DNA of 64,000 nucleotides. It comes from an uncultured virus (IMG/VR IMGVR_UViG_3300037882_001470). Taxonomy: Duplodnaviria; Heunggongvirae; Uroviricota; Caudoviricetes. The stretch is from IMG/VR virus record IMGVR_UViG_3300037882_001470; one strand, given 5' to 3'. Numbering within the stretch: the stretch's first letter is position 1; each line of letters opens with the position of its first letter. This document shows positions 1 through 44,013 of this stretch, one piece after another. A model generated the notes under the pieces. That model was not told where the DNA came from. It ran no database searches and worked only from the letters and a program-made list of their open reading frames with translations. A program made the position numbers and the translations under genes.

Positions 1-1119
1 CGACTGCGTTACTGACTTCGTATCCCCGTTCCACTTTCCGTAGACGACCGCCTCATGATCTGCGCCATCAATTGTTACACGTTCAGTTGTTACTTGAATT
101 CCGGGAGAATGGAGCGCAGTTGCGTCCCCAATCAATGCACGGGCCGCAGTAAATACGTCGTCATTACTGAGCTTCTTCAACACGTCGGCTCCTGGATACA
201 CCAGCCGACACAGTAGAGATGCGATTCTGTGTGTGTGCGCCCCATACATCCTATCGTGTAACTCATCGCGTTTTGAGGTATGCTCTGCACAGATATTTGC
301 GAGCATATTGGAGATAATATCCAACTTACTAGGAAGGTCATTCCCAGTGCGTGTCATCTCGTCGTATAGCGTCACGACGTCCTCTTCTGCGTCTACGTAA
401 GCCGAGTAGTCTTTCTGACGCACCCCGCACTCAGGCAATGTCACCCCAAACATGAGCGCGGCGTTCGACACTTCGTAGAAGCTCACGTGGTCTAGATCAC
501 ATGGAATACCAGAATTTCCGAGGTAGTTCGGCTCCTGAAGTCGCCGAGAATCATGAACGAAGTCGTCATTAAGATCGGTGATGCCGTCTACTTCCGCAAT
601 TGTTCCATCACGCAGGGTATCACCAACCACAACGTCGCGTCCCTTATAGTCTTTGCGTTCGTGGTCTTCGATCTGGATGAGATGTCCGTATTTACTATCT
701 ACGAACTCATCCAACGCGTCAGAGCCATTATCAGCATCTACGACGAACAGGTCAGCCTCAAACCCACCCTGCACGGCAATTAACCACAAGTGCTGGCAGT
801 AATTGTCACCGGGGTTCAGGACGTCTACGCGAACGTTATTGTGTATAATGTAGGTCTTCGCGTATTGCATGTTCGAAACGTCCGTCTCTTTACTAAATTC
901 GAACTCTACGAACTTGTTGAGCGCCCATGCTTCCTCGGGTGTTCGTAATTTGTCGTCGATCTCCAGAGCCCACTTCCATGGAGCCTCGGTCATATATCCT
1001 TCGACTACGTATTTCTTAAAGTCGTCGAAGTCGTCGAACACTTGTTGTAGGCGGTCGCTAAACCCGTCCTTGTTCGGGTAAAGTTTAACTTTCTTGCACT
1101 GTCTTGTATTTTTAATCAT
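1..1119 (-). CDS. Hypothetical protein, >373 aa, runs off the window edge (absent from the ORF track)
   Basis: Manual translation from ATG 1119 (MIKNTRQCKKVKLYPNKDGFSDRLQQVFDDF...) stays open to base 1. Confidence 0.85.
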   Translation of the reverse strand, partial: MIKNTRQCKKVKLYPNKDGFSDRLQQVFDDFDDFKKYVVEGYMTEAPWKWALEIDDKLRTPEEAWALNKFVEFEFSKETDVSNMQYAKTYIIHNNVRVDVLNPGDNYCQHLWLIAVQGGFEADLFVVDADNGSDALDEFVDSKYGHLIQIEDHERKDYKGRDVVVGDTLRDGTIAEVDGITDLNDDFVHDSRRLQEPNYLGNSGIPCDLDHVSFYEVSNAALMFGVTLPECGVRQKDYSAYVDAEEDVVTLYDEMTRTGNDLPSKLDIISNMLANICAEHTSKRDELHDRMYGAHTHRIASLLCRLVYPGADVLKKLSNDDVFTAARALIGDATALHSPGIQVTTERVTIDGADHEAVVYGKWNGDTKSVTQS

Positions 1120-1403
1120 GAGGTATCAGGTAGATTCTATCTCAACGGCTGAATTTAGCAGATCGCGTTTGAGACGTTGTCGTGTTCGTTTTTTGAACGC
1201 ACGTTTTGCGTTACGTATCTTTTCTTTTGCACCGGGACGTGATTCACAGTGCTTCGTTTTATCAGTCGGGGTGTCTTTACCTATACCTAAGTTGACGCGC
1301 CCTGCGTGGCACTGTGTCGACAACTTTTCCGTCAGCCCGCCCACCTGTCGCGCATACGGTTTCATTGGCATATCGTAATGGAATTAGTCTTCATGAGGTA
1401 TCA
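1116..1403. repeat. 13-bp direct repeat TCATGAGGTATCA (1116-1128, 1391-1403) flanking one gene
   Basis: Identical 13-mers at two nearby gene junctions, 275 bp apart. Confidence 0.8.
1126..1365 (-). CDS. Small basic hypothetical protein
   Basis: K/R-rich ORF. Start is 1365 or 1371. Confidence 0.65.
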   Translation of the reverse strand: MKPYARQVGGLTEKLSTQCHAGRVNLGIGKDTPTDKTKHCESRPGAKEKIRNAKRAFKKRTRQRLKRDLLNSAVEIEST

Positions 1404-3306
1404 AGTCTTTACTGTTGTAATACCGTTCTGCCGAAAACACAGCTTTAACCCAAGCTGCGTAGTTGCTTTTCCATCGGCGGTCACTTGCAAATCGTTTTAG
1501 CTCCTTTGGAACATATGCGGTTACGTTCAACACATCGTCCAATGGGAACCATTCCGTGTGCATACCTTTCGGGCTTACAGTTTCATATCGACACCAACGG
1601 CGGCTCCAGCGCTCGTATGATGGTTTTTCCCACTCCACAACGACTCCCGGCACGCCAACTACGTCACGCTTACTTCGACTACGCGATTCGATGAAATCGT
1701 GAGACAATCCGCGGTAACCTTTGTATGTAAATGCGTCTGACTCACGACCAGCGCGCACGCGCCTGACTCGGACATACTCTGGGACGCTCGCATTACCGGG
1801 GCGCTGGCGCAGGTCTTCGCACTGTTTAGTCGTTACGATGTCTCCCGGCTTCAATAGCGCGTTCAGCCGTGCCTGATAATCACTCCACTTTTCGAGGTTG
1901 TTCGTGAGGACGTCTTCGTCGTCCCTTACAATCCGAATGCACCTGTTGAAGTCGTCGTGTGACATCAGGCTTATCGGTTCATGTGGGGCAAATACGTCGC
2001 TGCGGTCCAGCAAGCCTTGAATCAATACCACGATGCGATTGTAATGTCGCATCTGGTCCGCGCAATTTCTCACGTGGATGTCATACGCGTGGTGATCGGG
2101 TGTGACGAATTCATATTCGTAATCCGAGTCCGAGTAGAACATACTCGGACGTCGCCCCGCTGCCTCGTCCTCTGCCTCTCGCGCAATAACCGACGGCTTC
2201 AACTTTTTGCCTCGGATCTTCATCGGAGCGTCGAACTCGTCGCGAAACGGCACAAGCCCTGGAGAGAAATCAATGTCCGAAATGATGCGATATACGTTGT
2301 CCCCGTTTCGTATCAAAATATACGTCTGTGTGTTTCGCATATGCCAGTCGGCTTGCTGAAACGCGACCCACAACGAGCTTGCAGGCCCGTAATCCTTTTT
2401 ATGTCTGCGAATCTGCCACGCTACGACTCCACGCGCCGAGGGTAGAACTCGCGATAACACTTCAGGACGACATACCCACTTATCGAAGTCCTCTACATTT
2501 GCGAAGTCCATACCACCTGCGTCGTAATAGAACATCGTTTCCTCGTCCATATACAACATGGACTGGCGAATTTCGATGGCTTCTTCTCGCGCGGCGGGTT
2601 CACCTTTTCGAATCTGCTTCACGTGTTCTCGGAGTCCAGCGTAAAGCTCGATGGTGAATATTTGTTGGTCGATGCACTGGAGCTCTTTCATCAACGTATC
2701 CATCTTCGCTTTCTCCGGGTGCATGAGCATTTTCGCCTTCACCGAGAACTGCGCGGTCACATTGCATACGGCCCGGCGCATTGCAGGGATGGTGTTCTCC
2801 TTAATTGCCAACAGCCGCGCTTTCTGTAAGTCAGGGTCCGTCACCCGTATTGTAGGTAGCATACTCGACACAACCTGGTCGACGTTGGCGATCTCCGCAC
2901 GAACAGCAACCGCGGCACCATTTGCAGTTGCGGTGTCCCGCAGTTGACGGACGAGATCTGCCATTTCCAGTTTGAGCTGTTCCATTTCTCCCTGGAGAAT
3001 CCTTACACCGTCCGGCTCCCGTTTTAGAGTGGTTCCAATCTCTTCGAAGCCTACAGTGTCGGATCGTGTGCTAGTGCTGGACTGAGACCCGTCACTGTAG
3101 ACGTAAAAGTCGAACCACTCGACTTTTACGCAGTTGGATCGCACCTCTGTAACAACGGCAAGCTCCCACTTTACTTCCCCTTCTGCCCCATCTTCTACAG
3201 GGAGGCGATACCAAAGGTAGTCACCGACCTTGGTTACTTGCTCGTCTTCACGGCTTATGCGCTGTGCGTCGACTAATACTGGACTTTGGTTTTCTGGGTT
3301 ACTCAC
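1384..3306 (-). CDS. Large phage hypothetical protein with coiled-coil segment (640 aa)
   Basis: Long ORF with GTG start overlapping the upstream stop. Contains a heptad-like region and the motif IELYAGL...MLYMDEE...GGMDF. Confidence 0.9.
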   Translation of the reverse strand: MSNPENQSPVLVDAQRISREDEQVTKVGDYLWYRLPVEDGAEGEVKWELAVVTEVRSNCVKVEWFDFYVYSDGSQSSTSTRSDTVGFEEIGTTLKREPDGVRILQGEMEQLKLEMADLVRQLRDTATANGAAVAVRAEIANVDQVVSSMLPTIRVTDPDLQKARLLAIKENTIPAMRRAVCNVTAQFSVKAKMLMHPEKAKMDTLMKELQCIDQQIFTIELYAGLREHVKQIRKGEPAAREEAIEIRQSMLYMDEETMFYYDAGGMDFANVEDFDKWVCRPEVLSRVLPSARGVVAWQIRRHKKDYGPASSLWVAFQQADWHMRNTQTYILIRNGDNVYRIISDIDFSPGLVPFRDEFDAPMKIRGKKLKPSVIAREAEDEAAGRRPSMFYSDSDYEYEFVTPDHHAYDIHVRNCADQMRHYNRIVVLIQGLLDRSDVFAPHEPISLMSHDDFNRCIRIVRDDEDVLTNNLEKWSDYQARLNALLKPGDIVTTKQCEDLRQRPGNASVPEYVRVRRVRAGRESDAFTYKGYRGLSHDFIESRSRSKRDVVGVPGVVVEWEKPSYERWSRRWCRYETVSPKGMHTEWFPLDDVLNVTAYVPKELKRFASDRRWKSNYAAWVKAVFSAERYYNSKDLIPHED

Positions 3307-3905
3307 GTTATTGACGCGCTCTCGACGGAAGGCAACGCTCCCGGCGTGTCGTATGGAGCGGCGCCAGCGTCCTCCAAGATTCGAATAAATTCGGATTCAC
3401 GAATACGTGTTCCGCCTTCCACGATATTTGGCTCTGTAAAATTACCTGGAATAATGGGCACTATGACGTAATACACACCGTCAATGAAATCGAACCGAGC
3501 GTTCCTTACACGGAACCCACCCATCCTGTCACCAGGTCCGTGCATTACTGTGACTGAGTCGGTCCCGGCGTGAATCATTTTAGCGAACACTGCTGAGCCG
3601 GGAATAGTTAGCTCGTCCATTCGCCGCTGAAGCTCTCTACCCGCCTTTGTTTGTGTCTTCGGTATGCTGACCTGCGCCCCTCCGACGTTGCGTCCACGCT
3701 TCCATGTGTCAGGTATAATGTCCCCGGCGAATTCCACACCAACGCATTGATAACCGTTATCGAACGGGCGCAGCGCTAACACCTCCTTTGTAAACTCGTG
3801 TATTCGATCAATCGCTTGTTGGCGCTCAGCTTGAAAGGCTTCGATGACGGTGTAAAGCGGGCTGGCCTTCGTTACTTTGTATATGATCTGTTCTCCAATT
3901 TTCAT
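3303..3905 (-). CDS. Hypothetical protein
   Basis: 200-aa ORF coupled to both neighbours. Confidence 0.85.
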   Translation of the reverse strand: MKIGEQIIYKVTKASPLYTVIEAFQAERQQAIDRIHEFTKEVLALRPFDNGYQCVGVEFAGDIIPDTWKRGRNVGGAQVSIPKTQTKAGRELQRRMDELTIPGSAVFAKMIHAGTDSVTVMHGPGDRMGGFRVRNARFDFIDGVYYVIVPIIPGNFTEPNIVEGGTRIRESEFIRILEDAGAAPYDTPGALPSVESASIT

Positions 3906-4558
3906 TGGGCTACTGGTATGTATTTAACTTCTACGAATCTCGGCTTTCCGTTCGGCATCTTTTGACAGAATCGGGAGATCGGTTGTGTGAATAACGTGGA
4001 CGAGCTGCTTGGCGTCGGGACCTCCGAGTATACCACATTCCACCCATCACTCTCCGTGTTGTAAGCAACTGCAATGCAGTGATAAAACTTACCGGTAGCC
4101 ACATGTTGAAACGTTCTAAGCGGGAATCCCAGAGGCGCGTTCAATGTATCATCCGATTTCGGCAGCAAGAATGTAGGAGTAACCGAGAAGTCTCCCATTG
4201 TCACAGGGCGCCGCTCCGTCACTGCAATGACATACGCATCGTGGTGGTCGTCCTGCCGGCAGTCGGCGCTGCACTTCACGTAGTAATCGTAAGGCGTGTC
4301 CCCCGTGTGGCGAATAACACACTCCGGGTTAAAGGTGGACTCCAAACTCTTATCCAGCGCAGTGCGCTGCATCACGTCGTGCAGTTGTCGAATCTTTCGT
4401 AGTGTTGGCTCCTCCATCGTATCGATATAGGCCCACCGCTCCAGCGGGTTCGCGTCCAGCCGGGTAAGTTCTGGCGTTAGCACCCAAATCATGGCGATTT
4501 TGTCGTGAACGATTATTTTCACGACTTTCCCATTCTTTAATACAGTGATGTCTTTCAT
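3902..4558 (-). CDS. DUF1653-like (SH3-fold) C-terminal domain protein
   Basis: FQHVATGKFYHCIAVAYNTES..NVVY...LFTQPISRF...PRF matches the DUF1653 pattern. Confidence 0.7.
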   Translation of the reverse strand: MKDITVLKNGKVVKIIVHDKIAMIWVLTPELTRLDANPLERWAYIDTMEEPTLRKIRQLHDVMQRTALDKSLESTFNPECVIRHTGDTPYDYYVKCSADCRQDDHHDAYVIAVTERRPVTMGDFSVTPTFLLPKSDDTLNAPLGFPLRTFQHVATGKFYHCIAVAYNTESDGWNVVYSEVPTPSSSSTLFTQPISRFCQKMPNGKPRFVEVKYIPVAQ

Positions 4559-4930
4559 TTAGTTTTCAGTAACTCGATCGATTTGGTTAACACCCGCCTC
4601 GTCAACTACGAGTCGAGGTTTGTAAGGTAGAATATAGCCAGACTCGCCACAAGACTGGCACGGATTCGAGACAGTTCTACCGTCATCGCCTGCATCGCAA
4701 TCTCCGCCTTGCCCGTGGCATTTCGGGCAAGGGAACACCGCCCTTCCAACCTCCTTAACTTTAGCAAGCCACTTTTCACTTTCATGTGGGTCGCCGGTCT
4801 CAAAGCATTCGATGGCGGATTGCATCCACTCATTTAGGAGCTGAACAAGACGGTGAATCGTAGCGGACTCTGAATCATTAGCGTTGGTCTCAGTGATGTC
4901 TTTCATATGGTTTTCAATACCTCTATCGAT
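4543..4930. repeat. 40-bp imperfect direct repeat (4543-4582, 4891-4930; 35/40) flanking gene 4559-4906
   Basis: Base-by-base comparison. The first 16 nt are identical. Confidence 0.9.
4559..4906 (-). CDS. DnaJ-type CxxCxGxG zinc-finger protein
   Basis: CPKCHGQG ... CQSCGESG. Confidence 0.75.
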   Translation of the reverse strand: MKDITETNANDSESATIHRLVQLLNEWMQSAIECFETGDPHESEKWLAKVKEVGRAVFPCPKCHGQGGDCDAGDDGRTVSNPCQSCGESGYILPYKPRLVVDEAGVNQIDRVTEN

Positions 4931-6017
4931 ATGTGGTCAGGGTTCGTGAGGTTCAGATAATCGATTGCGTTACTACGTGTCGCCTGCCAGATCGTGGCGA
5001 CTACTTCATCTTCCACAGAATCGACGGACTCGTGCCACCTACCTGACATTGACGGGATGCGATCCGCGACATAATCGGCGACCTGTGACGCCAGTGTTTT
5101 ACCGACGCCTCTTTCAAATAGATTCTTCTCTATCAGTTCTCGAAATGTCACTTATCCACCTCCAAGGTCAGCTTTCGGTTGAGTGTTTTAGTGCACAGCC
5201 AATACAGCTTTTTGTCGACAGCGTTCCGCACTCCGAGCCGTATCCCGCTACCACAACTACACTGACGCCAGCCACCAGTCGTAACTCCGGCACTGCCGTC
5301 CTTGAACAGAACGGCAGTGCCTTTTGGAATACTCGCAAATGGGATCATTACGGGAGGGCGTCGAGCCCGCGAACCAGCAGCGCTGCTTTGCGTAATACCT
5401 CACGTGTGCGTCGGCGTGCGTTCAAGTTATCCTGACGGTTACTGCTCGACGGGGCGGTGAGGCGTTGGTTGGCGACGCGGTGCATGAGCACTAGACGCTT
5501 GATGTCGTGCTCCATCTGCTTCAAGAAAGCCTCGCGGATGTCTTCTGACTGGTTCGCTACGGTCGCGATTACTCGCGGGCATTCTTCTGCCGACATTGCG
5601 CACATGTCATTCATCCAGTCGCGCATGGTCTGCTCGTCAATTACCTTTTCAGGTGACTCAGTTGATTCTTTGTTCATTGTGTATTTGTGTCCTGGGAGGT
5701 ACATTTACTGTCTCCGTTTGGTGCCGGGAAATGTCCCGCGGCTTCCGTCGTTTCACGTCATCATCAAAACCGCCAGCGTCACATAGCTCGGCGCTTTACC
5801 GTTCGTTGTAATGTAATCAGCGACGATCTGACACTGAGACTCCCAGTCGTGGCGCTGGCATCCCCATTCGAATCCAATGCGAAGCTCATACCATGCGAGC
5901 CGTGTAGCTGCCGTGTAGATCAGCTCTGATTGTTGTGTGGATGTGGAGTCCGCATCCGTCAATAGCCCAATCTTCGCGGCGTTGATACCTGCCTGCATCA
6001 TCCAGGCTTTATCCTGT

Positions 6018-6506
6018 TTATTCATCGAAGTCTGATTGGCCCTGCGGAACTCCGCCGTAGTTTACTAATTCGAATACCTCAATCTCTGCCTCTAACGTCT
6101 TTAGTTGGCCCTCAGTCACCTGAATCGGGTTGTTACCAAAACGGCGCTGCATAGCAATTGGTAACTCACCGAAGGCGACGCGCGCCGTAGGTAGTCCAAA
6201 CCACTCACCCGGAACCGATAACTTTCCAGACATGAAATCAAGTATCGCCGTCATTCGCTGTTTTCCGTCGATCACGGCTATTTCTTCTCCCCAACCAGCC
6301 GCGAACCTATCGTTAACGATCAATGACGGGATTGGGATTCCCCGCAGAATCGACTTTATCAGGTTGCGCTGACGAACCGAGCCCCATACATCCCCACGCT
6401 GATATGGCGGATTGAGCAGTAGATATCGCTCCTCTTGCCAGTATTTTATTACGTCTACGGGGCGCGACGTGTTGGCCAACCGTAGACGCTCTATTGCTTT
6501 AATCAT
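6018..6506 (-). CDS. Stand-alone DUF262 (ParB-like / GmrS N-terminal) protein
   Basis: PPYQRGDVW, LIKSILRGIPIP and VIDGKQRMTAI motifs. Confidence 0.9.
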   Translation of the reverse strand: MIKAIERLRLANTSRPVDVIKYWQEERYLLLNPPYQRGDVWGSVRQRNLIKSILRGIPIPSLIVNDRFAAGWGEEIAVIDGKQRMTAILDFMSGKLSVPGEWFGLPTARVAFGELPIAMQRRFGNNPIQVTEGQLKTLEAEIEVFELVNYGGVPQGQSDFDE

Positions 6507-6739
6507 TCTGGTTCCAGATGTTTCTCTGACTCTAGCACGAAGTCCGCACGTGCGACGCTCATTTCATCACCTGTGGCTTCCCATGTAACACACATCGCAC
6601 CGGGTATGCAGTCGTGCTCAGATTTATCCACGATGGCGACGGCACTCACGTCCATCGATGAGTCGGCGCGAATTCGTTTCAAGTAATGTTTCGAATACAC
6701 AACTCGGTCTCCTTTTTTGAATTCTAGGTTTAAGATCAT
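6503..6739 (-). CDS. Small SH3/KOW-like protein
   Basis: FKKGDRVVY...VTW...KHLEP, similar to the C-terminus of 54255-54767. Confidence 0.65.
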   Translation of the reverse strand: MILNLEFKKGDRVVYSKHYLKRIRADSSMDVSAVAIVDKSEHDCIPGAMCVTWEATGDEMSVARADFVLESEKHLEPE

Positions 6740-7245
6740 GTCTCGTCTACAAAATCAGATGCGACGCGTGCATCCTCTGCGACGCGCTCAGCCTTAACGC
6801 GCTCCCTTTCTGTCGCAATGATAGCGTCTCGCGTTGCTTTAAGATACCTCATACGCTCTTCCCACGTCATGCGATACGCATTAACGGCTGACGAGTCAGG
6901 CGCAAGTGTGTCGAGCAGACGTAGCATACGCCTCGGGAATCTGGCAGCGTTCGCAAACTCCCGAAACATCTCGATCACGCGCGGGTGTTCTAAATCTTTC
7001 AGTAGCATGACGCGCGCCGGTTGAATTGCACTGGGGGACGCGCTCCAGTAAGTGACTCTGGAAGACCTGTATGGCTCGTCCTTTCGCAACCCGAATCCGT
7101 AAATGTCATATCGCCCAGGAACTGCGTATCGATAAATAAACGCAGGTTCGTCCGCGTCTTCTCTTTCACCGATACATAGGAACTCCGTGTCTTCGCCGTC
7201 TTCTGTGACCAGCGTGTTATCGCTGTAGTGATGTTTATCTGCCAT
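6736..7245 (-). CDS. Hypothetical protein
   Basis: 169-aa coupled ORF. Confidence 0.8.
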   Translation of the reverse strand: MADKHHYSDNTLVTEDGEDTEFLCIGEREDADEPAFIYRYAVPGRYDIYGFGLRKDEPYRSSRVTYWSASPSAIQPARVMLLKDLEHPRVIEMFREFANAARFPRRMLRLLDTLAPDSSAVNAYRMTWEERMRYLKATRDAIIATERERVKAERVAEDARVASDFVDET

Positions 7246-7248
7246 ACA

Positions 7249-7521
7249 TCAATCCTTCACGGCGAACTTCAGTTTTGTGAGTTTATCCAGCTTCTTTTCA
7301 GTGGACCTAAGAGCTCGGTCACGCATTTTGTAGAATTGCCACAGAGCCTCGGCTTCAGTTCTGTGCCAGTGTGGTTTATGGTAACACACCATACATACAC
7401 CACGCCGTGTGGATGCTACCATTGTCGGTGAGTCGCATTGTTCGACCTCTTGCTTAAACACCCCTACCGTTAAGGCGTATTGCGTGATGTAGGCGGTGAA
7501 TGTTTCTGGTTTGGGTGTCAT
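7249..7521 (-). CDS. Phage hypothetical protein
   Basis: YITQYALT.GV...WHRTEAEAL motif with a helical C-terminus. Confidence 0.8.
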   Translation of the reverse strand: MTPKPETFTAYITQYALTVGVFKQEVEQCDSPTMVASTRRGVCMVCYHKPHWHRTEAEALWQFYKMRDRALRSTEKKLDKLTKLKFAVKD

Positions 7522-8225
7522 ACGATGATTGGGTCCCCCACCTCAAATGAAGTAACCGGACCTCTTAAGATTGTCTCGTCGTTACGCCAGCCAATTGTTT
7601 TTGCGTGTGCGAGCCATTTCTCAAACGTCTTATCCAGATCGTCATCAGGCACTGCCACTACAATGGTTGTCTGATTTTGGAACTTAAACGTGCAGATTTT
7701 ATAGTGTTTTCTCATTTAGTTTTTATTCAAGTGTTAGGGTTGGAACTTCCGCCGACCATAGTATCGGCGTCCGTTTTTCAGTTTTCGCGAGGCGTAGTGC
7801 ATCCTTTGTCAATTCAACCTCGTTATCTCTGCCGCTGCTCAATATAACGGCACGAAGCCACAGCTTCATTGTGTTATTCTCTTTGCGTAGTTTTTCGATC
7901 TCTTGCGCCGCTACATACGCGCATGAGCCGGCGGATTTTAACTCGTCGACTAATTTATCGTGATTCGATGTTTTGCTCATAATTTGAAAGCCTCGGCTTC
8001 ATATCTGTTCACGTATGGTGGGATTGTCTCATCCGGCTCATGGTATCCGTCCAGATAGCAACCATTAGCGGAAAGCATTCCTTTACCGGCTTTCCGGTCT
8101 TCCTGACCTTGCCTGTAAAGCCTACATCTCTGTTTCGTATATTCGTCCGGTTCATCGAGTAGCTCCCAGTTTTCAGTGCGGTAATACCATTTACCGTCGT
8201 TCTTTTGTATGTCGCTCATATCTAG

Positions 8226-8852
8226 TCAGATCATATCTTCTCGGGCTTCACGCATGTGCATCAGCCACTCGTGGTAACCGAGCTGCGTGTCACCGTTATT
8301 TACTTCGTATTTCCAGTCACTTCGTGGGTATTTGTCGTCATCGATGTCCCATGAAGACACCTCATCGACTTTAACCGGGGGATTCGCTGTAGATGTAGTT
8401 TTACCTCGCTGACGATTAACGACACGCTCCAAGTCATTTCGGGCGTCCCATGTAGCGCCGTCTATACACCCGCTGAAGTGCGTTGTTGCGACAAGTCCAA
8501 AAGCCGCGTCGAGCAGTTCTTCGTGCTGATTGACCCGTTCTATCAACAACATCGTTAGAACACTTCCCGGAAGGCTCTTCATGAACTCGTAGTATCCGGG
8601 CGTTGACTCCTTCCAAGATGACATTGACGCGTGTAGAAACTCGGTCGCAGACGTGCGCTGCGCTCGTTGCTCAAACACCAACCGCATACTTGGGCATACG
8701 ATCGCGTATTTCACCCATTCCCCGATTTCGTAGCTCATAACGTCTTTCGACTGAAAGTCCCATAGGCAGCTTGTCAGCGTTTTAATGGCTGTGTCTGTTG
8801 TCGAGGTCTGGACGTGCTTACCGTCTACCAGAATGTAGTAAGTGACTTCCAT
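8226..8852 (-). CDS. Hypothetical protein with C-terminal YPRSDWKYEV..GDT.LGY.EW module
   Basis: Start re-assigned to ATG 8852, next to the upstream stop. Confidence 0.8.
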   Translation of the reverse strand: MEVTYYILVDGKHVQTSTTDTAIKTLTSCLWDFQSKDVMSYEIGEWVKYAIVCPSMRLVFEQRAQRTSATEFLHASMSSWKESTPGYYEFMKSLPGSVLTMLLIERVNQHEELLDAAFGLVATTHFSGCIDGATWDARNDLERVVNRQRGKTTSTANPPVKVDEVSSWDIDDDKYPRSDWKYEVNNGDTQLGYHEWLMHMREAREDMI

Positions 8853-9118
8853 ATTACGGCTGCAACTCGAACAGCCCGAGACATGTCGCGCCGATAAACG
8901 CCGCATCGACATCGGCCTCCAGAGTCAGGACAATGGCATCTGCCAGTAAAGGCATCGTTTTACCGCGTGCAAACGAGCGGTGGGCGAGCCCGTCAATATA
9001 CCCGTGAAAGCCTGCGTCTTCGCTGCCTTTACACATTACGAGATGCGCCAGCGGTGCGAACGGGCGCGTGCTGTCGAAGCGCATAGTCGCGCGTTTAAAT
9101 AACTCTGCAATACTTAGT

Positions 9119-9751
9119 TCAGACATGTGGTGTGAGTGTTGTGTCGATGATCGTGAAAAGAATGCGTCCGGCTTCTGCGCGTTGCGCTGCTGCTACCGCG
9201 TTTTCGAATACTGGCGCTAAGTCATTGCATACGATATCCCTGAGTAAGCACAGCATGTCCGGTGTATACCGCATAGCCAGTGATGCTTGAATAGATTGCT
9301 CGTGGCATTCCATGCTACAGCCCTTGTTACGATAGATCTGCCCGATGGGGGTGCGTTGTGCATCTCGTAGTTTTACGATGTGTCCGGGAACTGTCGCGGT
9401 GAGGCTATCATATTCGACCACCCTCGACATTTTTAATTCCCGTGGGATCGAAATTGGAAACAGCCCGACGGGGCGGTGCCATTCCAAGTTCTCTGGCGAC
9501 ACCTTATAATGCCTATAGACCGCGGCAGTAAATTGATACCACGCGCGCATCGTCCGTTGGTTATCACCTACACTCCCGGCGTCATAGAATGGCTTTTTCG
9601 TATGGGCGGTATTACGTCGGAACACGGTGGCGTGCATTGGGTCGAATGAAGCGATGCAGAAGTCTCCAATAAACAACTGCACCACAAAGAACGGTGTCGA
9701 CACTTCACATCGCGATATCTGTTTGGTGTTACTCTTTATAACTATATTCAT
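9119..9751 (-). CDS. Hypothetical protein
   Basis: 210-aa ORF. Confidence 0.8.
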   Translation of the reverse strand: MNIVIKSNTKQISRCEVSTPFFVVQLFIGDFCIASFDPMHATVFRRNTAHTKKPFYDAGSVGDNQRTMRAWYQFTAAVYRHYKVSPENLEWHRPVGLFPISIPRELKMSRVVEYDSLTATVPGHIVKLRDAQRTPIGQIYRNKGCSMECHEQSIQASLAMRYTPDMLCLLRDIVCNDLAPVFENAVAAAQRAEAGRILFTIIDTTLTPHV

Positions 9752-9802
9752 ACTTTTGGGTTTAATCAGCGTTTTCAGCGTCCGGGCTCAGTGTAGTGCT
9801 TC

Positions 9803-10255
9803 TCATATCCAGAAGCTTCGCGCACAGCTTCCATCACGACACTGCCACTCGTCTAGCGTAGCCGTGTTTAAGTGGTCGCGAGGCTCCAGTGTATTTGCAG
9901 CCCACTCCGTGCAATGCGATAGGATATCACCTCCACAGAAAGGGCAATGCAGGCTGTGCTGAGGTTGCGGCTCTTCCTTGTAAATCGCATCCGTAGCTTT
10001 CAAAAACTCATGAAAGGACGCGACTAACACATGGTCCTTTCCGGCGTTACTTTTAAGCAACTGAAACATTGTGCGCCAATTATACTCCGACTGACCCGTA
10101 TAGAATGTCGCAATGTCGTCTCCGGTGCATTCGATATTTACGTCTGACCTGATAACCTGAATCGTCTCTATAGGCGACTCGTCCCCGTGTGCCTCGTTTT
10201 CGGCATCCGCTAAGAAGTGAAGCGCCTTAGCACGCTTTGTAATCAGAAATTGCAT
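9803..10255 (-). CDS. Hypothetical protein with C-terminal zinc ribbon
   Basis: CPFCGG ... WQC...C..SFW. Confidence 0.75.
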   Translation of the reverse strand: MQFLITKRAKALHFLADAENEAHGDESPIETIQVIRSDVNIECTGDDIATFYTGQSEYNWRTMFQLLKSNAGKDHVLVASFHEFLKATDAIYKEEPQPQHSLHCPFCGGDILSHCTEWAANTLEPRDHLNTATLDEWQCRDGSCARSFWI

Positions 10256-10716
10256 TGCATTCTAAAACTGCCGGATCGCCATACCACTACGGAGTCCGGA
10301 GGATTGTGATCTGTCTTTATACATACGTCGTATTCACCCATAAATGGGCGTTCGTGCACTGGCCCGTCCAGCCGGCATTCAGGAAACTCTTGTCGCATCC
10401 AGTCCCGCACACGGAGTGTTAAATCCAGCGTCTGCTTAGGTCGTATCTCATGAATCCAGAACTCACCAAGAACCCGCTCCTCGATGAAGAGATAAGCATA
10501 CGGGAACTCGTGCAGACCGAAGTCCGCCGGGTTCTTGGAGCCGTGCACGAACGGGTTTTCGCCCCATGCCTCTTCAGCGTCCGCAAACCCAAGTCGCGCG
10601 GCGAGGTTGTAGGTCTCTGCGTAGCGTTCGAACTCGTCAAACGTCGCATACTGTTTGCGCAATCTCCCAAACCACCCGGTCTCCCCGCTGGGACACTTGT
10701 AAACTCCGTTGTTCAC
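10243..10716 (-). CDS. Hypothetical protein
   Basis: N-terminal module resembles that of 1-1119. Confidence 0.8.
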   Translation of the reverse strand: MNNGVYKCPSGETGWFGRLRKQYATFDEFERYAETYNLAARLGFADAEEAWGENPFVHGSKNPADFGLHEFPYAYLFIEERVLGEFWIHEIRPKQTLDLTLRVRDWMRQEFPECRLDGPVHERPFMGEYDVCIKTDHNPPDSVVVWRSGSFRMQCNF

Positions 10717-11261
10717 GGTTTACCTCCGCGTAAAACATCATCGATAATGAAGTCGAAGATTTTCTTGTTTCCGTTTACGGCTTCGAGAGCCCAATTAGTA
10801 ATGGTAAGCGTATCCGCCGGCATATGGATTGCGTCGTATACAATCTGTGCGAATTTTTTGTCCACACGCAGTAGCGAGGCGCACAGCGCTATAATCATCG
10901 GCTCCGGGTTGCTTGAATCTAGCCAGACAGTGTATGGCATTTCTTGTCCGTTTTTTAAATCATCGCATCTACTACCTAGAGTGTTCTTCAGCGGGCAGCC
11001 GCGGCATTGTCCGTCGTCCTCATGGGCATGGTCGAAGTATTTCTCACAAAGCGCACACGACGTTGTGTCCACTGAGAAGGGTCCCTTGTCAGTATACCAT
11101 AAGCTGTCATCGACTTCATCCTTGTGACACTCGTGTTTCTTCAGATTCGCTTTACGTAGCCCTACCCATTTACGAATCGAGTGACGTAACCTCGCAACAT
11201 CGGATCGTGGTTTTTTCGCAGATACGGGGTAGAACTCGGCTTTCCAAGATTCAAGACTCAT
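10713..11261 (-). CDS. Cys-rich phage hypothetical protein
   Basis: HSIRKW.GL...CALC...C.GCPL motif. Confidence 0.8.
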   Translation of the reverse strand: MSLESWKAEFYPVSAKKPRSDVARLRHSIRKWVGLRKANLKKHECHKDEVDDSLWYTDKGPFSVDTTSCALCEKYFDHAHEDDGQCRGCPLKNTLGSRCDDLKNGQEMPYTVWLDSSNPEPMIIALCASLLRVDKKFAQIVYDAIHMPADTLTITNWALEAVNGNKKIFDFIIDDVLRGGKP

Positions 11262-12111
11262 CTTCTTCGCCCTCCTTATCGGGGATACAGCCTGCGATTA
11301 CGGCATCTTCTCGCTCATACATCTCGACCTGAGTGTATCCAGAGCCTTCGTCGGGGTCGAAGGCGGTAAGCACGCGTGCTATGTCCCCATTCTTTCTCGC
11401 CTTCTCGGCGATCATATTCGCCTTGTCCCATGAGTTGCAGTCTTCATCCTCGTAGCCTGCTAGCCCTTGAATTTCGATGTCCGTATTTGGGCCGGGGTTT
11501 CGGATAATGATAACGCCGAACTCAGGCATGTGTCTCCTTCACTGTTTTACAATTGTTGGTATGGTTCATTTTGTGTCATGTGGTAATCCTGCAATATTAT
11601 TCATCCAGGCGTTAATTGTTTTGAATTCGTAAAAGGTCGCGTCAATGCAGACTCCAGTTTCGTTTGACATCACTGCGTCTATTAATTCTTGTGCAAGTCC
11701 GTCCTCAACGACCTCGCGGAAGAACTCTTCATCGTGTGGGCTTGGTTCAGCCTCGAAGAGATCTGAATACTCATTACCGTAGTTGTCCCACGCGCGATAC
11801 CCATATTTAACTCCTTCGCAATCGGTGAACTTTGTTCTTCGGATATGTAATGTATTACTCAAGTGGCGCTGTAGGTTTTACACACTTCGGACACGTAGTG
11901 TTATTGCTACGTTCTCCGCATTTGTTGCATACGCGTCTTAGCGTCTTATCCGGCAGTTCCGCGGTAAACGTTATTCCGAAAAACTCTTCTCGTTCCATTT
12001 CGGGCACCAGTTTAAGGTCTTTCGACGCAATTTCATATCCCTTTGATTTTAGGAATAGTGACACGGCTTCGGTCACTTCTGATTGTGATACTGTTATTTT
12101 CATTATGTGTG

Positions 12112-14644: not shown

Positions 14645-14649
14645 GTTGG

Positions 14650-33150: not shown

Positions 33151-33717
33151 TCACTTGCCATGTTGTTTTTGGGTTTCTAGGAATTCGTCGTTACGCATCC
33201 ATGCCCGGTGTTCCATTGAATATACACACCGCTGCGACTCAATCAGTGGGATAGAGTGCGTTGCTATAACCAACTGATTTCGGTTCTTCAACGCGGTTTT
33301 GATAACGTCGAGCAACGCATACTGACTCCGAACGGACAATCCACTTTCTGGCTCGTCCCACAGTATCATAGACCGCTTAAAAGCCTCCATCGCCTTTGCC
33401 ATCTTCAGCATTGCCTGCCCGTGGCTACACCACCGCAGTTGAAGCGTAGCCATAGCAGGTAACGGTGTGTCGTCGAGGCTGGCCGCAATTCTCGGGTTGT
33501 TCTTTTCAGTGTCGAAGTAACGTGTCTCCACGGGAGTCGGGCAGTCGGAGGTTAAATGCTTACCTCCTGTGTGGAGCTCGTACAGTAGTGTCGACTTGCC
33601 ACATCCTTGGTCTCCTACCAGCAACGTTACCGGTTTGAACCCTATGGACTCTCCTTTATTGAAGCACCGGTGGTTCTCGTTCCAGAGAATTGATCTCAGG
33701 TATATTGCGTGCGTCAC
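33151..33717 (-). CDS. Stand-alone ABC-type ATPase (AAA_21/COG3910-like)
   Basis: Walker A GDQGCGKST, SHGQ signature, Walker B WDEPE, H-loop IATHS. Confidence 0.9.
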   Translation of the reverse strand: MTHAIYLRSILWNENHRCFNKGESIGFKPVTLLVGDQGCGKSTLLYELHTGGKHLTSDCPTPVETRYFDTEKNNPRIAASLDDTPLPAMATLQLRWCSHGQAMLKMAKAMEAFKRSMILWDEPESGLSVRSQYALLDVIKTALKNRNQLVIATHSIPLIESQRCVYSMEHRAWMRNDEFLETQKQHGK

Positions 33718-34257: not shown

Positions 34258-34629
34258 CTACGTCAGGAAGTTGAATACGCACACCAGCCAGATGAACACG
34301 AGATGCCATGCTTGATCCACGAACAGCGGACCCGCAGGCCACCTGTCCGGGGGTGTCTGGCGATAGAACATCATCCACTTGCGGTGAAGCTCGTAACGGT
34401 CCTGAAGCCAATGCTGGATGAGGATTAATGCTGTAGGTGCAGCACCAATCCCGGCAATGGCTGCGATAGGTGTCACGAACATGGTGTAAATTCCTACATG
34501 CGCACTGCAAGTATACGAACACTTGTTCTTATCTTGGTGCGAGTCGTTTTGAAACAGGAAATCTCCTGCGAGGTGCGCTATAAGGATCATGACGAACGCG
34601 GAGTTCGCCTCAATAAGTTGTTGAGTCAT
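34258..34629 (-). CDS. DUF3307 membrane protein (second copy)
   Basis: AHLAGDFLFQ, HV.IY, QHWLQD and DQAWH motifs. Confidence 0.85.
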   Translation of the reverse strand: MTQQLIEANSAFVMILIAHLAGDFLFQNDSHQDKNKCSYTCSAHVGIYTMFVTPIAAIAGIGAAPTALILIQHWLQDRYELHRKWMMFYRQTPPDRWPAGPLFVDQAWHLVFIWLVCVFNFLT

Positions 34630-35685: not shown

Positions 35686-36345
35686 TCATAGTTCAAGGTG
35701 AGCAAGCATCTCACACGCCGGACCTTTGTAAAAACGAATAGACTGCAAAAAGCTCTGGCGCTTTACTTCATGGCACGTGGTTGTTGAGTGCGTCGTAAAG
35801 GTATCGGGCGTGCTTAGCAGCCCTGCGTAATACAATAGGGTGTTGACCACCTGGTCCCTGATCGTAAGCCCCGAAGCCGTCCCACCGTACTGGAGATCGA
35901 ACCTACCGGAGTAGTGCTTCTGCTGTTTCTTTTTGTTCTCCCATGTGACTTTGAAATCACACTTATGGTAACTGCCGTCTATTGGCGCACTTTTACCCCA
36001 TCTCACAAGCTCCGCGTGGGCTTGAAATAGCGGGGCTATGTCCTGCAGTGAGTCTGATTCAAAGTCCGGGTTGTTCCAACGCTTGAAGACTACCGACTTA
36101 TGTCCGCCCTCTACGCGTGTCAATTCGACCTGTTTCTGTAGAATCGGACGCTCCGGCATAAGCACGCGAAACTCCATATCCGGGCCTTGTTCGCTAGACT
36201 TGTATAATGCGATGTCCAGTCCGTTGAACGGTTGCACACTCACAATCTTGCCCTGCGCCGGCTTTCGACACAGTCGGTCGCGGCTTACGTGGTGTCGCAT
36301 ATGGTCAAACACGACGTCGGCGTCGTTTACAACACTGGTTGTCAT
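35686..36345 (-). CDS. Hypothetical protein with LPD25-like motif
   Basis: GSYHKCDFKVTW....YSGRFDL (by eye). Confidence 0.5.
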   Translation of the reverse strand: MTTSVVNDADVVFDHMRHHVSRDRLCRKPAQGKIVSVQPFNGLDIALYKSSEQGPDMEFRVLMPERPILQKQVELTRVEGGHKSVVFKRWNNPDFESDSLQDIAPLFQAHAELVRWGKSAPIDGSYHKCDFKVTWENKKKQQKHYSGRFDLQYGGTASGLTIRDQVVNTLLYYAGLLSTPDTFTTHSTTTCHEVKRQSFLQSIRFYKGPACEMLAHLEL

Positions 36346-37739
36346 TTGTCAGATTTTTCACTCCAGAACCGAGTATGCGCAATACGCACGCATCGGTCCT
36401 GAAATTGAGCTCCGGAGTCTTTTGACCCTTCGGCTACCGTTGTATCCCACATATCTGGGTAATCGCTCAGAATACGTTTTGCAATCTTCAGCCTTCCGTT
36501 AGCATCCAGTGCCGGCATCTCAATGATTCGGTCAAGACGCCCTGGTCTGGATGACATACCGTCATGGCTCGCTACGCCCATGGCCGGGTCAATCGACTCT
36601 GGGTGGTTGGTGGTTATTCCCAGAAGAACACCATTCACTGACCCTGCCCCGTCCAATGTGTTCAATACGGCGTCGAATGTCAACCCACCGCCCTCTCGAC
36701 CTAGGACGTTCTCGCGACCCTTGAATACGCCGTCGAAGTCCTCAAACACGATCATACAGGGAGCGTTTGACGCGGCGCGTTGCCACATCTCTCCAAACTC
36801 CACGTTCGACATCATCGCGAGATCGAACACATACATCGGCATGTCCAGCATCTCGGCTATGGCTTTCAACAACGTCGTCTTACCGAGTCCTGGTTTGCTC
36901 CATAGCAATACGGATAACCTCCACGGGATGTCGCGTTCCAGAAACCACTTCTCCGATGTATACCACCTCCTACATTCCTCGACAAATTCGAGAACAGTTG
37001 GCGACAGTGCCATCAGATTGATACGCCCTTTAGTATTTGCGAACCCGAGGTCATCCGAAGTATCATGAAACATCCGAACCGCTGTCATCTTTATCCGTTC
37101 GTCAATTGGTGGTAGTTCTGCGGGCGTTGTAGGTTGCGCTGGTGCTCCTCGAGAATACCCGTAAATATCATTAGCGGTTTCCGCCGCTGTCTTCCGCATA
37201 TACATTTGACCAGTGAATGTAGTCACTGAAAATCTGCCTACGCGATGACTGTTAGACGAATCACGGAGTTTGGATTGAGCGCGATTCCATTCTACGGCTT
37301 TTGCCAGTATAACATCAATGTCCACAGTTCCGCGTATAAACTCCAGATGCCCGGAATCTCCGGTGGAGCTCGTAGCATTACTTGAGAGACTATTATTTCC
37401 GCCTACCGTATCTGAACCGAATAACAGTGGCCATCTTTTGATAAAGAACAAGTATCTGTATCGTGGCAGGACTTCTTGCATCGTAAACTCCAAACGTTCT
37501 GTGGACTTTAGCCTACTGTATTTACCGTCAATCGTCCGACGCGCCGACAAACATACACGCCTATGGTGGTGGTGCATCAAATACAGAAACGTCACCCATC
37601 TCACCGTGCTGTCGGCCACAGCCACCCGAACAATCACCAGCCCTCGTAAATACTCCCATACGCTTACTACCTGCCTCCAGCACGTTGCTACTACCGCAGC
37701 AACGCCTCCCAATGCCAACCAGTTATAGTTTTGTAACAT
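36342..37739 (-). CDS. Membrane-anchored AAA+ ATPase, BCS1-like
   Basis: N-terminal hydrophobic helix; IPWR...LL.SKPGLGKT, FEDFD, LN.LDG, TTNHPE.IDPA and RPGRLD motifs. Confidence 0.9.
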   Translation of the reverse strand: MLQNYNWLALGGVAAVVATCWRQVVSVWEYLRGLVIVRVAVADSTVRWVTFLYLMHHHHRRVCLSARRTIDGKYSRLKSTERLEFTMQEVLPRYRYLFFIKRWPLLFGSDTVGGNNSLSSNATSSTGDSGHLEFIRGTVDIDVILAKAVEWNRAQSKLRDSSNSHRVGRFSVTTFTGQMYMRKTAAETANDIYGYSRGAPAQPTTPAELPPIDERIKMTAVRMFHDTSDDLGFANTKGRINLMALSPTVLEFVEECRRWYTSEKWFLERDIPWRLSVLLWSKPGLGKTTLLKAIAEMLDMPMYVFDLAMMSNVEFGEMWQRAASNAPCMIVFEDFDGVFKGRENVLGREGGGLTFDAVLNTLDGAGSVNGVLLGITTNHPESIDPAMGVASHDGMSSRPGRLDRIIEMPALDANGRLKIAKRILSDYPDMWDTTVAEGSKDSGAQFQDRCVRIAHTRFWSEKSDK

Positions 37740-41316: not shown

Positions 41317-41850
41317 TCATAGAATCGACGGGACAAGAGCGTAGTAGCGCTGAAGAAACGATTCCCGAGCGTTCTCTGGAGCCCATGGCTCGATGATAGT
41401 GACATTCGGCTCCACGCCGCGCAGGCAATACCACTCTTCGTCAGGTCCGTTTAACAGGTCCCGTCGCTCTGTAGCCAACATCACCATGTCCGCGTGCTTT
41501 ACGCAATCTGGTAGCTTTTCGTCCAACCCGAATTGATTCAGCACAACTTTCGTAACACGACGTTCGATATCCTTGTAGTCCGGGAGCAGGGCTTTCAGTG
41601 GACGTGGGATGTCCCCGATGAATGCCTCTGGGGCGTCGTGCATCAACGCCGCAAATGCGAACTCTTCAGGGACAATATAGCTCGCCAGAACAGAGTGCTG
41701 TGCGACGGAGTAGAACGTCTTACAGTGACCGCCGAAACGGCAGATGTTTGCGAGCGCGTGTGCGATGTCGTAGATCGTAAACTTGGAGTTTTGTGGTTCG
41801 ATAAAGTCGAAATACGTTCCTCCGGCAATTAAGATACTTGGATGTTCCAT
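41317..41850 (-). CDS. HD-domain phosphohydrolase (YfdR/YfbR-like 5'-deoxynucleotidase)
   Basis: DIAHAL..ICRF.GH...YSVAQHS...LMHDAPEAFIGDIP.P.K...VK.AD. Confidence 0.92.
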   Translation of the reverse strand: MEHPSILIAGGTYFDFIEPQNSKFTIYDIAHALANICRFGGHCKTFYSVAQHSVLASYIVPEEFAFAALMHDAPEAFIGDIPRPLKALLPDYKDIERRVTKVVLNQFGLDEKLPDCVKHADMVMLATERRDLLNGPDEEWYCLRGVEPNVTIIEPWAPENARESFLQRYYALVPSIL

Positions 41851-42210: not shown

Positions 42211-42582
42211 TCATTGCACTAAACCTTTCGCTAAAAGAAACGCGATAAGTTGGTCCAGAGGTTCGGAGTCCATTACCGCGTATACCGCGGTTGCGTGTAA
42301 GGAGTATACCTCGAACGTATACCCCAGCTGGGACGCCAAATGGCATAAGAATGCGCGTCTTTCGTCCGGTGTCAGTAACTTGCGGGCCTCCGACATTGCG
42401 TCACGAGACGTGTCGTATTTCGGGATCGGGAGTTGGTAATGATGATGGTCACTTGGCCTGTCTGGGCGAAGTCCGATCACGCCATCAACTATCGTCCACC
42501 CGGCCACCACCGCGCACATGATACGCATCTGCGTTGGGTCTTTACGTAATTCGCTAATACTTGGTAGTTCGAGTTCAATCAT
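42211..42582 (-). CDS. Phage ABA-sandwich-like family member
   Basis: A.VAGW...PKYDTSRDAM.EA...L. Confidence 0.6.
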   Translation of the reverse strand: MIELELPSISELRKDPTQMRIMCAVVAGWTIVDGVIGLRPDRPSDHHHYQLPIPKYDTSRDAMSEARKLLTPDERRAFLCHLASQLGYTFEVYSLHATAVYAVMDSEPLDQLIAFLLAKGLVQ

Positions 42583-43199: not shown

Positions 43200-43296
43200 C
43201 GAAATAATGGTAGCTGCATACCGACTTTATGTAATAGCACTGCGGCGATCGTTATCAACACGCCCCATACGACTATGGCGAGTAGTGTGGTAATCT

Positions 43297-44013
43297 TCAT
43301 TCGTTTGGGACGGATAGTGCGCAGTTAGCCGTTTTGGACCACTCACTTTTCGCGCCGATGATCATGCACCCGCGAGGGTTTAGTCCACCGACATCAGTTT
43401 GGTCCGGTTTTACTTCATGCCAGTATTCGCCAACAAACCGGACGATGCCGGAGCGACCCTTATACACTCCGCCGATGATTAAAACGCCGTCACCGACGGC
43501 TAACAAGGGCGCGGCAGCTAACGCGCCTGTCGCGTTCTCCGTGCTTGGCACGTCGTTCGTGGCGCGTTGCTGCGCTGCGCAGTTCGCACACATTATTGAA
43601 ACGCATCCCGGTATGGCTTGCGCCGTCGACTTCTCAACGCCTCGCCATTTCGTATTTATACGAAAGCCTGCTTTATCGTAAGCATGCCAGAGCTGGTGTA
43701 TACATGATCCCCTTGATTTTAACATGTCTGTAATATGTTTTGGGTGTCCACACTTTAAGCACTTGTCTTCACCGTTCTGTCCGTATGGTTTAACCGTCGG
43801 AGTCGGCATCTCTTCGTCCTTGTTTTCTGGTTCTACCGCAGGTTCGACATCCGGGTCTGTAGGAAGTTTGAGCCGCCTCGTTGGGTGTAGCTCGGCGTTC
43901 AATTGCTCGATCGTTATCCGCGCGGCAATCAACTCCCGTTGAACTTCATCGTAGCATTCCGCCAGCGCTTCAACACTCTTTATCGCCTGTTCTTTCGCGT
44001 CTCGGAACGTCAT
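43297..44013 (-). CDS. Chimeric protein: coiled-coil, Cys motifs and cassette-derived KOW/SH3-like domain
   Basis: CLKC and CANC motifs; the KOW-like VGDGVLIIGGVYKGRSGIV lies within the 258-bp cassette. Confidence 0.8.
   Translation of the reverse strand: MTFRDAKEQAIKSVEALAECYDEVQRELIAARITIEQLNAELHPTRRLKLPTDPDVEPAVEPENKDEEMPTPTVKPYGQNGEDKCLKCGHPKHITDMLKSRGSCIHQLWHAYDKAGFRINTKWRGVEKSTAQAIPGCVSIMCANCAAQQRATNDVPSTENATGALAAAPLLAVGDGVLIIGGVYKGRSGIVRFVGEYWHEVKPDQTDVGGLNPRGCMIIGAKSEWSKTANCALSVPNE
43325..43582 (+). mobile_element. Integron-type gene cassette (258 bp), coding antisense to its attC
   Basis: Begins G|TTAGCC (43324-43330), the exact complement of its attC R'' GGCTAAC, and ends at G|TT (43582). 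Confidence 0.75.
43498..43588 (+). other. attC-like recombination site
   Basis: R'' GGCTAAC - 6 nt - L'' GCG(G)CAGC (T) AACGCGCC - 33-nt loop - GGCGCGTT L' GCTGCGC - 6 nt - R' GTTCGCA, with two extrahelical bases. Confidence 0.8.

Follow-up and report, generated by a model that had tools for sequence, protein, structure and literature searches.

Duplicated gene junctions in the small-gene array of a large freshwater phage look like heterogeneous scars of mosaic evolution

The window analysed here is a stretch of 64 kb from the 131.8-kb contig of a large freshwater phage. It contains six pairs of direct repeats, five of them associated with gene junctions and one lying within a gene. All six had been claimed in the original prediction, and all are present in the sequence:

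1116-1128 and 1391-1403, minus strand: 13-nt pair (13/13 identical) flanking g165
4543-4582 and 4891-4930, minus strand: 40-nt pair (35/40) flanking g161
12392-12434 and 12709-12751, minus strand: 43-nt pair (36/43) in the g138-g140 trio
18090-18100 and 18518-18528, minus strand: 11-nt pair (11/11) flanking g121
18956-18974 and 19363-19381, minus strand: 19-nt pair (18/19) flanking g119
43318-43326 and 43576-43584, plus strand: 9-nt pair (9/9), 258 nt apart and in frame, belonging to an attC-like cassette in g055

The longest exact runs in the five junction pairs are 13, 16, 10, 11, and 9 nt, respectively. When the six repeat families were compared with one another (15 pairs), the best scores were 1-7, with a single value of 10; there is no consensus among them, and one common system is therefore unsupported. 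The 20 largest families of direct repeats within 3 kb have two copies each. A 10-mer common to the g161 and g119 repeats was discarded as a candidate for a general site, since the 8-nt core within it is present three times in the coding strand and absent at the other repeats. Most of the repeats do cover a gene junction, as had been claimed, but the upstream 13-mer lies off the start of g165 and the 18/19 repeat, which stops at the ATG, includes only the upstream side of its junction.

The clearest anatomy is that of g161:

4891-4930, minus strand: upstream 40-nt copy, covering the end of g160 and the first 16 nt of g161
4559-4906, minus strand: g161, 115 aa, with a core 68% identical to the homologue P0002
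4543-4582, minus strand: downstream 40-nt copy, covering the tail of g161 (in a reading frame that differs from that of g160) and the start of g162

The opening codons of g161 are those of g162, and P0002 has neither of the two borrowed ends. Three of the five differences between the copies are silent in the frame of g160 and one in that of g161, a bias that fits two alleles of the g160 tail. Together, these comparisons give good support to g161 being a putative insertion with a 40-nt duplicated junction. A hairpin scan detected no decayed attC at the start of g161.

Two further loci lie close to each other:

19363-19381, minus strand: upstream 19-nt copy, from the end of g118 to the ATG of g119
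18949-19365, minus strand: g119, 138 aa, phrog_722, with an 89% relative (P0009)
18956-18974, minus strand: downstream 19-nt copy, from the end of g119 to the ATG of g120
18518-18528, minus strand: upstream 11-nt copy, derived, giving a non-family end to g120 and a non-family start to g121
18090-18527, minus strand: g121, a DUF3307 protein of 145 aa
18090-18100, minus strand: downstream 11-nt copy, the native overlap of g121 and g122

P0009 opens with the N-terminus of g120; at the protein level, this suggests the same anatomy in a relative of g119. The start MGI of g121 is found in none of its 33 homologues and the end WE of g120 in none of ten, while all six homologues of g122 start with MG. 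DUF3307 and g122 genes adjoin in three of six loci, and their overlap is kept in phage L008. These observations support g121 as the probable old partner of g122, with an extra, derived copy of their overlap placed upstream.

The remaining junction repeats are of other kinds:

1391-1403, minus strand: upstream 13-nt copy, inside the final codons of g164 (640 aa, 1384-3306)
1126-1365, minus strand: g165, a basic protein of 79 aa, between the 13-nt copies
1116-1128, minus strand: downstream 13-nt copy, covering the stop of g165 and the ATG of g166
12112-13108, minus strand: g138, g139, and g140, three tandem paralogues of phrog_1273

The upstream 13-mer lies 26 nt before the start of g165 and contains the ATG of a 10-codon ORF (1362-1394), the stop of which overlaps that start. 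No relative of g165 was found, and it has no match among isolated phages. In the trio, where g138, g139, and g140 match phrog_1273 with E-values of 1.6e-8, 1.2e-14, and 4.2e-5, the 36/43 repeat and further repeats (25/29, 23/26) are the common heads and tails of the three genes. Hence, g139 is a paralogue within a tandem trio, and only at g138-g140 do adjacent genes of one family account for the repeat.

The sixth repeat is of yet another nature:

43318-43588, plus strand: attC-like cassette, inside g055 (43297-44013, minus strand)

The cassette spans 86 codons, in frame. Its GTT core lies at 43324-43330 and is exactly complementary (7/7) to 43498-43504, and a hairpin occupies 43498-43588. This last segment has complementary R boxes and paired L arms as in an attC site, but its folding energy is unremarkable (z -1.33; 21 of 200 shuffles were as good). 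The consensus of attC cores is GTTRRRY, from which the last core of this site, ending in GTTCGCA, deviates. No other convincing attC-like hairpin was found in the 64 kb, and the five junction repeats have no attC features. We infer that an integron integrase, of the host or of a phage, would have placed this cassette and with it the 9-mer.

Adjacent junctions are indeed more alike than the background given by shuffled ones, as the original prediction had required. When junctions were anchored at the start codon, the best three of all 13,530 junction pairs were all adjacent, and three pairs reached a score of at least 13 where 0.11 were expected (p=0.0003, 20,000 shuffles of gene order). Without anchoring, the five named pairs rank first to fifth among the 164 adjacent pairs; five reach at least 11 (0.78 expected, p about 0.001) and four at least 13 (0.11 expected). 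Next-but-one junctions gave no pair with a score of at least 11, so that the excess is confined to single genes and there is none for two-gene units. The signal is carried by the three long pairs: once g138, g139, g119, and g161 are dropped, two pairs remain against 0.76 expected (p=0.18), and the 11/11 and 13/13 pairs are therefore not significant on their own.

The same excess is found elsewhere. Among nine other phage stretches, a non-random set chosen for having a gene in common with the window, 13 of 364 adjacent pairs score at least 13 versus 1.8 expected, and the window does not differ from them (p=0.4-0.6). By our own reading, nine of these 13 matches are paralogue arrays or promoter-like repeats; the remaining four of 364, compared with three of 164 in the window, are small numbers that show no difference (p=0.68). 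The set excludes L011, presumed to be a duplicate of L010 from equal match statistics of the unaligned stretches, L001 and L003, which are parts of L002, and L004-L006, which are too short; L002 was set apart for its consensus repeat, an array of 20-23 copies. L009 and L012 have longer tandem paralogue arrays and are too diverged from each other for a comparison of empty sites. The frequency of duplicated junctions in the window thus looks like that of other phages, which disfavours a dedicated gene-capture machinery. It had also been claimed that collapsing a repeat pair leaves an intact, coupled junction. This holds in all five cases, where both neighbours stay whole and overlap by -8, -4, -4, -10, and -10, but the outcome is nearly automatic and has little weight as evidence: start-to-start deletions of genes without any repeat leave an intact junction in 114 of 145 cases.

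No recombinase had been recognised in the window, and family scans agree, since no such family, integron integrases included, was found among 150 proteins (Pfam) and 30 (PHROGs). The Pfam scan covered 150 of the 166 genes (g166, among the 16 omitted, was scanned with PHROGs only) and plus-strand ORFs were excluded. An annealase or integrase may be encoded elsewhere on the 131.8-kb contig. Relatives are scarce: searches with an exact 26-nt pattern and with g162, g164, g147, g161, and g119 found no close relative with DNA context, a set of 1.84 billion representatives contains g162 as a singleton, L001-L005 have no gene in common with the window beyond their g120 homologues, and no single-copy empty site was found. 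Ten freshwater runs contain part of 10500-20400. Comparison of four freshwater runs with 600-20500 revealed no excision or circle joint at the five repeats among the matches listed; this absence is weak evidence because the runs are low-depth contigs, from which rare variants are dropped and where the attC region is uncovered. Two joints among the matches listed, at 11643-11813 and 14718-14792, lie off the repeats; neither has shared letters, and both could stem from other organisms.

We read the five junction repeats as genuine scars of mosaic exchange, of a type already described, and the same anatomy, with empty sites, is published. In the mycobacteriophages described in the consulted part of Pope et al. 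2011 (PMC3029335), gene 68 of Island3 relative to Brujita and genes 43-46 of LRRHood relative to Cali are an extra gene or block between direct repeats of 60 bp and 29 bp. These repeats are gene ends, of which the relative without the gene has one copy; the direction of change was left undecided, and general recombination was proposed for the junctions. The window likewise has extra genes between direct repeats of gene ends, but whereas the empty site is in hand for those mycobacteriophages, none was found for the window phage, and its repeats are shorter (11-43 nt), lie across stop/start overlaps, and supply the middle gene with codons for its N-terminus. Other known systems fit less well. 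In the PeSLs of T4-type phages, as presented in the part of Arbiol et al. 2010 used here (PMC2839356), nearby repeats recombine in hyperplastic regions of small genes, which are inserted, deleted, and circularised. A single promoter-terminator consensus recurs many times between genes in the case of PeSLs, whereas the window, judged by repeat copy number, has unrelated two-copy pairs in coding overlaps. Unequal crossing-over in tandem paralogue arrays resembles the g138-g140 trio and leaves g161, g165, and g121, with their unrelated neighbours, unexplained. Integrase-type attP x attB integration needs one conserved core, and none runs through the six repeat families.

With a probability of roughly 70%, we regard the repeats as scars of several kinds, left by the ordinary mosaic evolution of phages in a tightly coupled small-gene array and filtered by selection. 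It is unlikely that they stem from single-gene circles that an annealase recurrently inserts and excises in Campbell fashion, a route that would need no dedicated att site: given a stop/start overlap, a circle cut from a relative would carry the first bases of the old neighbour and re-enter at that neighbour's start. The restriction of the excess to single genes agrees with such circles, the integration of which also predicts the borrowed N-termini in three cases (g161, P0009, and g121). Natural micro-homology is available as well, since the DUF3307 family often has a W near its tail (9 of 33), and in L008 this tail overlaps the start of g122. The part of the T4-type study cited above shows that PeSLs form mini-circles between neighbouring repeats, and Rad52-like phage annealases, with their relaxed recombination, are a plausible class of enzyme for crossovers at short, diverged homology. 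However, the exact homology, at 9-16 nt, falls short of the 23-27 bp given for efficient Red-beta exchange in the sections of De Paepe et al. 2014 (PMC3945230) considered here, and no annealase gene was found in the window. Furthermore, the four low-depth contig sets gave no joint at the repeats among the matches listed, none of eight other DUF3307 loci is repeat-flanked (best scores 5-8), and the g120-g122 junction expected of an empty g121 site is absent from six distant g122 loci. A Campbell-type circle yields the same product as two linear crossovers in succession, and the two are indistinguishable here. The original prediction of circles entering by Campbell crossover at junctions is partly supported, in that g161 and g121 carry the terminal codons of their neighbours, as duplicated-junction insertion predicts, but neither circles nor excision joints nor empty sites were observed. 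Single-gene circles are a possible route in the window phage.

That a dedicated integron-like system grows and shuffles the whole array with its own recombinase is extremely improbable. It would be favoured by the attC-like site in g055, whose core boxes are exactly complementary, by the ends of the g161 homologue, which may resemble translated attC halves, and by half of the contig lying outside the window. Yet the repeats have no common site, a single convincing hairpin was found, only five of 164 junction pairs are affected, and arrays built on one site look different, as L002 does. The idea of a reusable system is unsupported in view of this lack of a common site, the g138-g140 trio, the native junction of g121, the short exact homology, and the equal rate in the controls. 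Relative to the integron cassettes, attC sites, and CALINs of phages, the last of which need at least two attC sites within 3 kb in the cited part of Qi et al. 2023 (PMC9892861), g055 has a similar GTT-core hairpin and complementary box bounding 258 nt; but its site is single, antisense, and intragenic, accompanied by a 9-nt remnant, and no integrase was found among the scanned genes of the window. It is also very unlikely that the 11/11 and 13/13 pairs are mere chance matches of A-rich overlapping starts, leaving only the three long pairs in need of a history. The expected numbers given above and the p-value of the short pairs would allow it, as would the -4 overlap at 75 of 165 junctions with their A-rich leaders. 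Nevertheless, the 11-mer falls just where g120 and g121 both have non-family ends and where the overlap is -10 (4 of 165 junctions), and the 13-mer brings the 10-codon ORF that re-couples g165.

Under the reading as mosaic scars, a gene would be acquired, and its target junction doubled, through rare joins at short homology or illegitimate ones, through tandem duplication, and through unequal crossing-over between relatives that infect the same cell. The incoming gene would start with the leader and first codons of the next gene and end on a copy of the tail of the previous one. The survivors would be only those products in which both neighbours are whole and coupled. The repeat copies then diverge, a step visible in the present sequences, which would make them poor substrates for re-excision.

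It is rather unlikely, though of wider consequence, that homologies of 10-40 nt built from overlaps form an att-free route of accretion across phages, in which single-gene circles or fragments re-enter at the start of their partner. If so, a newcomer would take the partner's leader and first codons and be expressed and coupled immediately, and att-free accretion would be visible as the several-fold excess of duplicated adjacent junctions in the window and the nine controls. In the literature we found single examples and no count of duplicated adjacent junctions across phages. The junction statistic is simple and applicable to any phage; as read here, the repeats point to no new machinery. The five loci provide an example set of how accessory arrays gain genes with translational coupling unbroken. 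Should circles prove to enter at stop/start overlaps, a mechanism that can be tested would be available for an old question, namely why the mosaic boundaries of phages coincide with the ends of genes.

The repeats on which the original prediction rested are confirmed: five genes of the window, g161 (35/40 nt), g139 (36/43), g121 (11/11), g119 (18/19) and g165 (13/13), lie between repeated junctions, a 9-mer (9/9) is repeated at an attC-like cassette, and all six repeats stand where they were predicted. Similarity between adjacent junctions exceeds the background of shuffled gene order, anchored or not. When the 13,530 junction pairs are anchored at start codons, the three highest scores go to adjacent junctions, and a score of 13 is reached by 3 adjacent pairs versus 0.11 under shuffled order (p=0.0003). 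Without anchoring, the five named pairs lead the ranking of the 164 adjacent pairs; five score at least 11 versus 0.78 (p=0.001), and no pair of next-but-one junctions scores that high. This excess depends on the long pairs, since without g138, g139, g119 and g161 the count is 2 versus 0.76 (p=0.18). That the short pairs are matches by chance is, in our judgement, improbable. Reducing a pair to one copy, which removes the gene in between, leaves both neighbours whole and overlapping in all five cases, as the original prediction states. It carries no evidence of mechanism, because 114 of 145 repeat-free deletions from one start to the next, and 9,821 of 12,089 joins of any two starts, do likewise.

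These junctions belong to a dense array. All of the 166 small genes that our gene caller finds are encoded on the minus strand, and 146 of 165 junctions overlap or almost abut; a -4 overlap occurs at 75/165 junctions and a 10-nt overlap at only 4/165, three of them consecutive at the starts of g120, g121 and g122 (18090-18958). The window comes from a metagenomic contig of 131,819 bp, parts of the window are present in ten freshwater runs, and from the gene layout, PHROG matches and distant phage homologues we infer phage DNA. The leaders of all gene starts are A-rich (A up to 47% at -5 and -3) and G-poor close to the start, with little Shine-Dalgarno signal. Gene g110 (618 aa, 22413-24269), with an SdiA-regulated-family domain, is moron-like: two inverted-repeat hairpins near 24300 and 22380 flank it and no other gene. 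Two strain variants were each seen in two runs, a 73-nt stretch swapped for 70 different letters (14718-14792) and an allele about 92% identical around g146/g147 (9539-10022).

Other features of the array
15376-15450: the one tRNA-Met(CAT) gene, within the array
34258-34629: g079, second DUF3307 gene, dispersed paralogue
61963-62661, 55063-55425, 42211-42582: dispersed paralogues g006/g058/g025
54255-54767, 6503-6739: dispersed paralogues g027/g155
6018-6506, 41317-41850, 36342-37739, 33151-33717: accessory genes (GmrSD N-terminal domain, YfbR-like nucleotidase, two ATPases)

The case that best fits insertion with duplication of a junction is g161. Its opening codons are those of g162, and at its end a copy of g160's tail is translated in a different frame; the one homologue found (P0002, 68%; one relative among three candidates) shares the core and differs at both ends. 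The 35/40 copies differ at five positions, three silent in g160's frame and one in g161's; small as these numbers are, they are compatible with the copies being g160-tail alleles of related lineages. The ends of P0002 resemble what we take to be translated halves of attC sites, and g161 may therefore derive from a cassette. The 18/19 repeat around g119 ends at an ATG in the window, and P0009, an 89% relative of g119, begins MNVKET where g120 begins MHVKET, ET being part of the g120 family start; at the protein level, the P0009 strain thus appears to bear g120's head on g119, as a two-sided duplication predicts. The 36/43 repeat is the common head and tail of tandem paralogues: g138, g139 and g140 each match phrog_1273, a widespread family (30 phage records), and g138 and g139, which align at 45%, have further repeats in common. 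The upstream 13/13 copy sits within the last codons of g164 and starts a 10-codon ORF overlapping the start of g165, for which a search for relatives gave none.

At g121, the two copies of the repeat seem to differ in age. The downstream copy is the native, old g121/g122 junction, since 6/6 g122 homologues start MG, another contig (L008) has the same 10-nt overlap, similar in sequence, between a DUF3307 gene and a g122 homologue, and the two families adjoin in 3/6 loci. The upstream copy is derived, since 0/33 DUF3307 homologues of g121 start MGI and 0/10 g120 homologues end WE. The old junction argues against a later arrival of g121 at a g120|g122 site; this empty site does not occur among six g122 loci, and none of eight other DUF3307 loci has flanking repeats. 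A g121 circle may have re-entered at g122's start and linear routes are also possible, but recurrent traffic of circles through stop/start overlaps is, in our judgement, unlikely. Excision or circle joints at the five repeats, another prediction, were absent from four runs, a weak negative given low-depth contigs; the copy at 18090-18100 is spanned in its filled form by contigs of two runs.

A dedicated system behind the integron-like route that the original prediction proposed is very improbable. No consensus emerges from the 15 pairwise comparisons of the six repeat families, and their longest exact runs (9-16 nt) are shorter than the homologies quoted for Red-beta (23-27 bp) and RecA (31-34 bp) in PMC3945230. 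No recombinase family was found among 150/166 genes in Pfam or 30 genes in PHROGs, the window being part of a contig. The 9-mer is best read as a terminus common to a pair of related attC sites, of which one is truncated, and therefore as the product of an integrase rather than of a micro-homology crossover.

Elements of the attC-like cassette in g055
43324-43330, plus: GTT core
43498-43504, plus: exact complement of the core, bounding a segment with it
ending at 43588, plus: hairpin after the bounded segment

The cassette is antisense to g055, and removing 258 nt keeps the frame (238 to 152 aa). Its attC-like fold is not exceptional (z -1.33); phage attC sites are already published (PMC9892861).

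Nor is the excess peculiar to this phage. The same gene caller and score were applied to nine control stretches, selected because they share g164 or g121: 49 kb of Mesorhizobium phage Cp1R7A-A1 and eight viral contigs of 20 kb. Among their 364 adjacent pairs, 18, 13 and 6 reach scores of 11, 13 and 16 (5.2, 1.8 and 0.9 expected); the window has 4, 3 and 3 of 163, no different in rate (p=0.37-0.60). The control excess is uneven, four of the nine stretches lacking matches at 13 or above and a fifth reaching 12 at most. By our reading, the 13 control matches at score 13 comprise six paralogue arrays, three promoter-like repeats and four junction duplications like the window's, and for these alone the rates are again alike (4/364 versus 3/164, p=0.68). 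Two contigs, L009 (6655-9044) and L012 (2569-7782), carry roughly 7 and roughly 14 paralogues in tandem; these proteins of 70-130 aa end in a C-x-EW-x-K-x-V-like motif, and their genes overlap the following one by 8 nt. In L008 (4570-4900) an 898-nt gene has its initial ~35 nt duplicated ~250 nt upstream, and a 65-aa gene lies between the copies; in Cp1R7A-A1 (19397-19770) 15 nt around the start codon are common to three successive junctions. An unrelated phage with a g120 homologue, L002, has a repeat-built array of 20-23 copies of one consensus: in 1-10330 (also in L001, L003 and L004) small genes each follow a copy of this 18-nt sequence, about half of the copies being preceded by a G+C hairpin and T run. 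It looks like a PeSL-type promoter-terminator array; one gene is duplicated (76%; 6474-6773, 9795-10094), and a 13-nt unit recurs about eight times near 11806-11946.

Duplicated junctions of this kind are already known from other phages. According to Pope et al. 2011 (PMC3029335), Island3 gene 68 lies between 60-bp shared gene ends and LRRHood genes 43-46 between 29-bp repeats, Brujita and Cali having one copy each, and both cases were put down to general recombination; mini-circles between PeSL repeats have been demonstrated (Arbiol et al. 2010, PMC2839356). Our literature search, with most subscription papers outside its reach, found no published count of adjacent-junction duplications across phages. 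The accretion interpretation is partly supported: the adjacent-junction excess and borrowed termini favour it, and the unrelated repeats and control-like rate oppose one dedicated system. Gain as the direction, the enzyme and any circular intermediate are what we infer. Most likely (probability about 0.7), genes would be added to such arrays by rare joins at short homologies, by duplications and by unequal crossovers, the products being retained where the neighbours remain whole.
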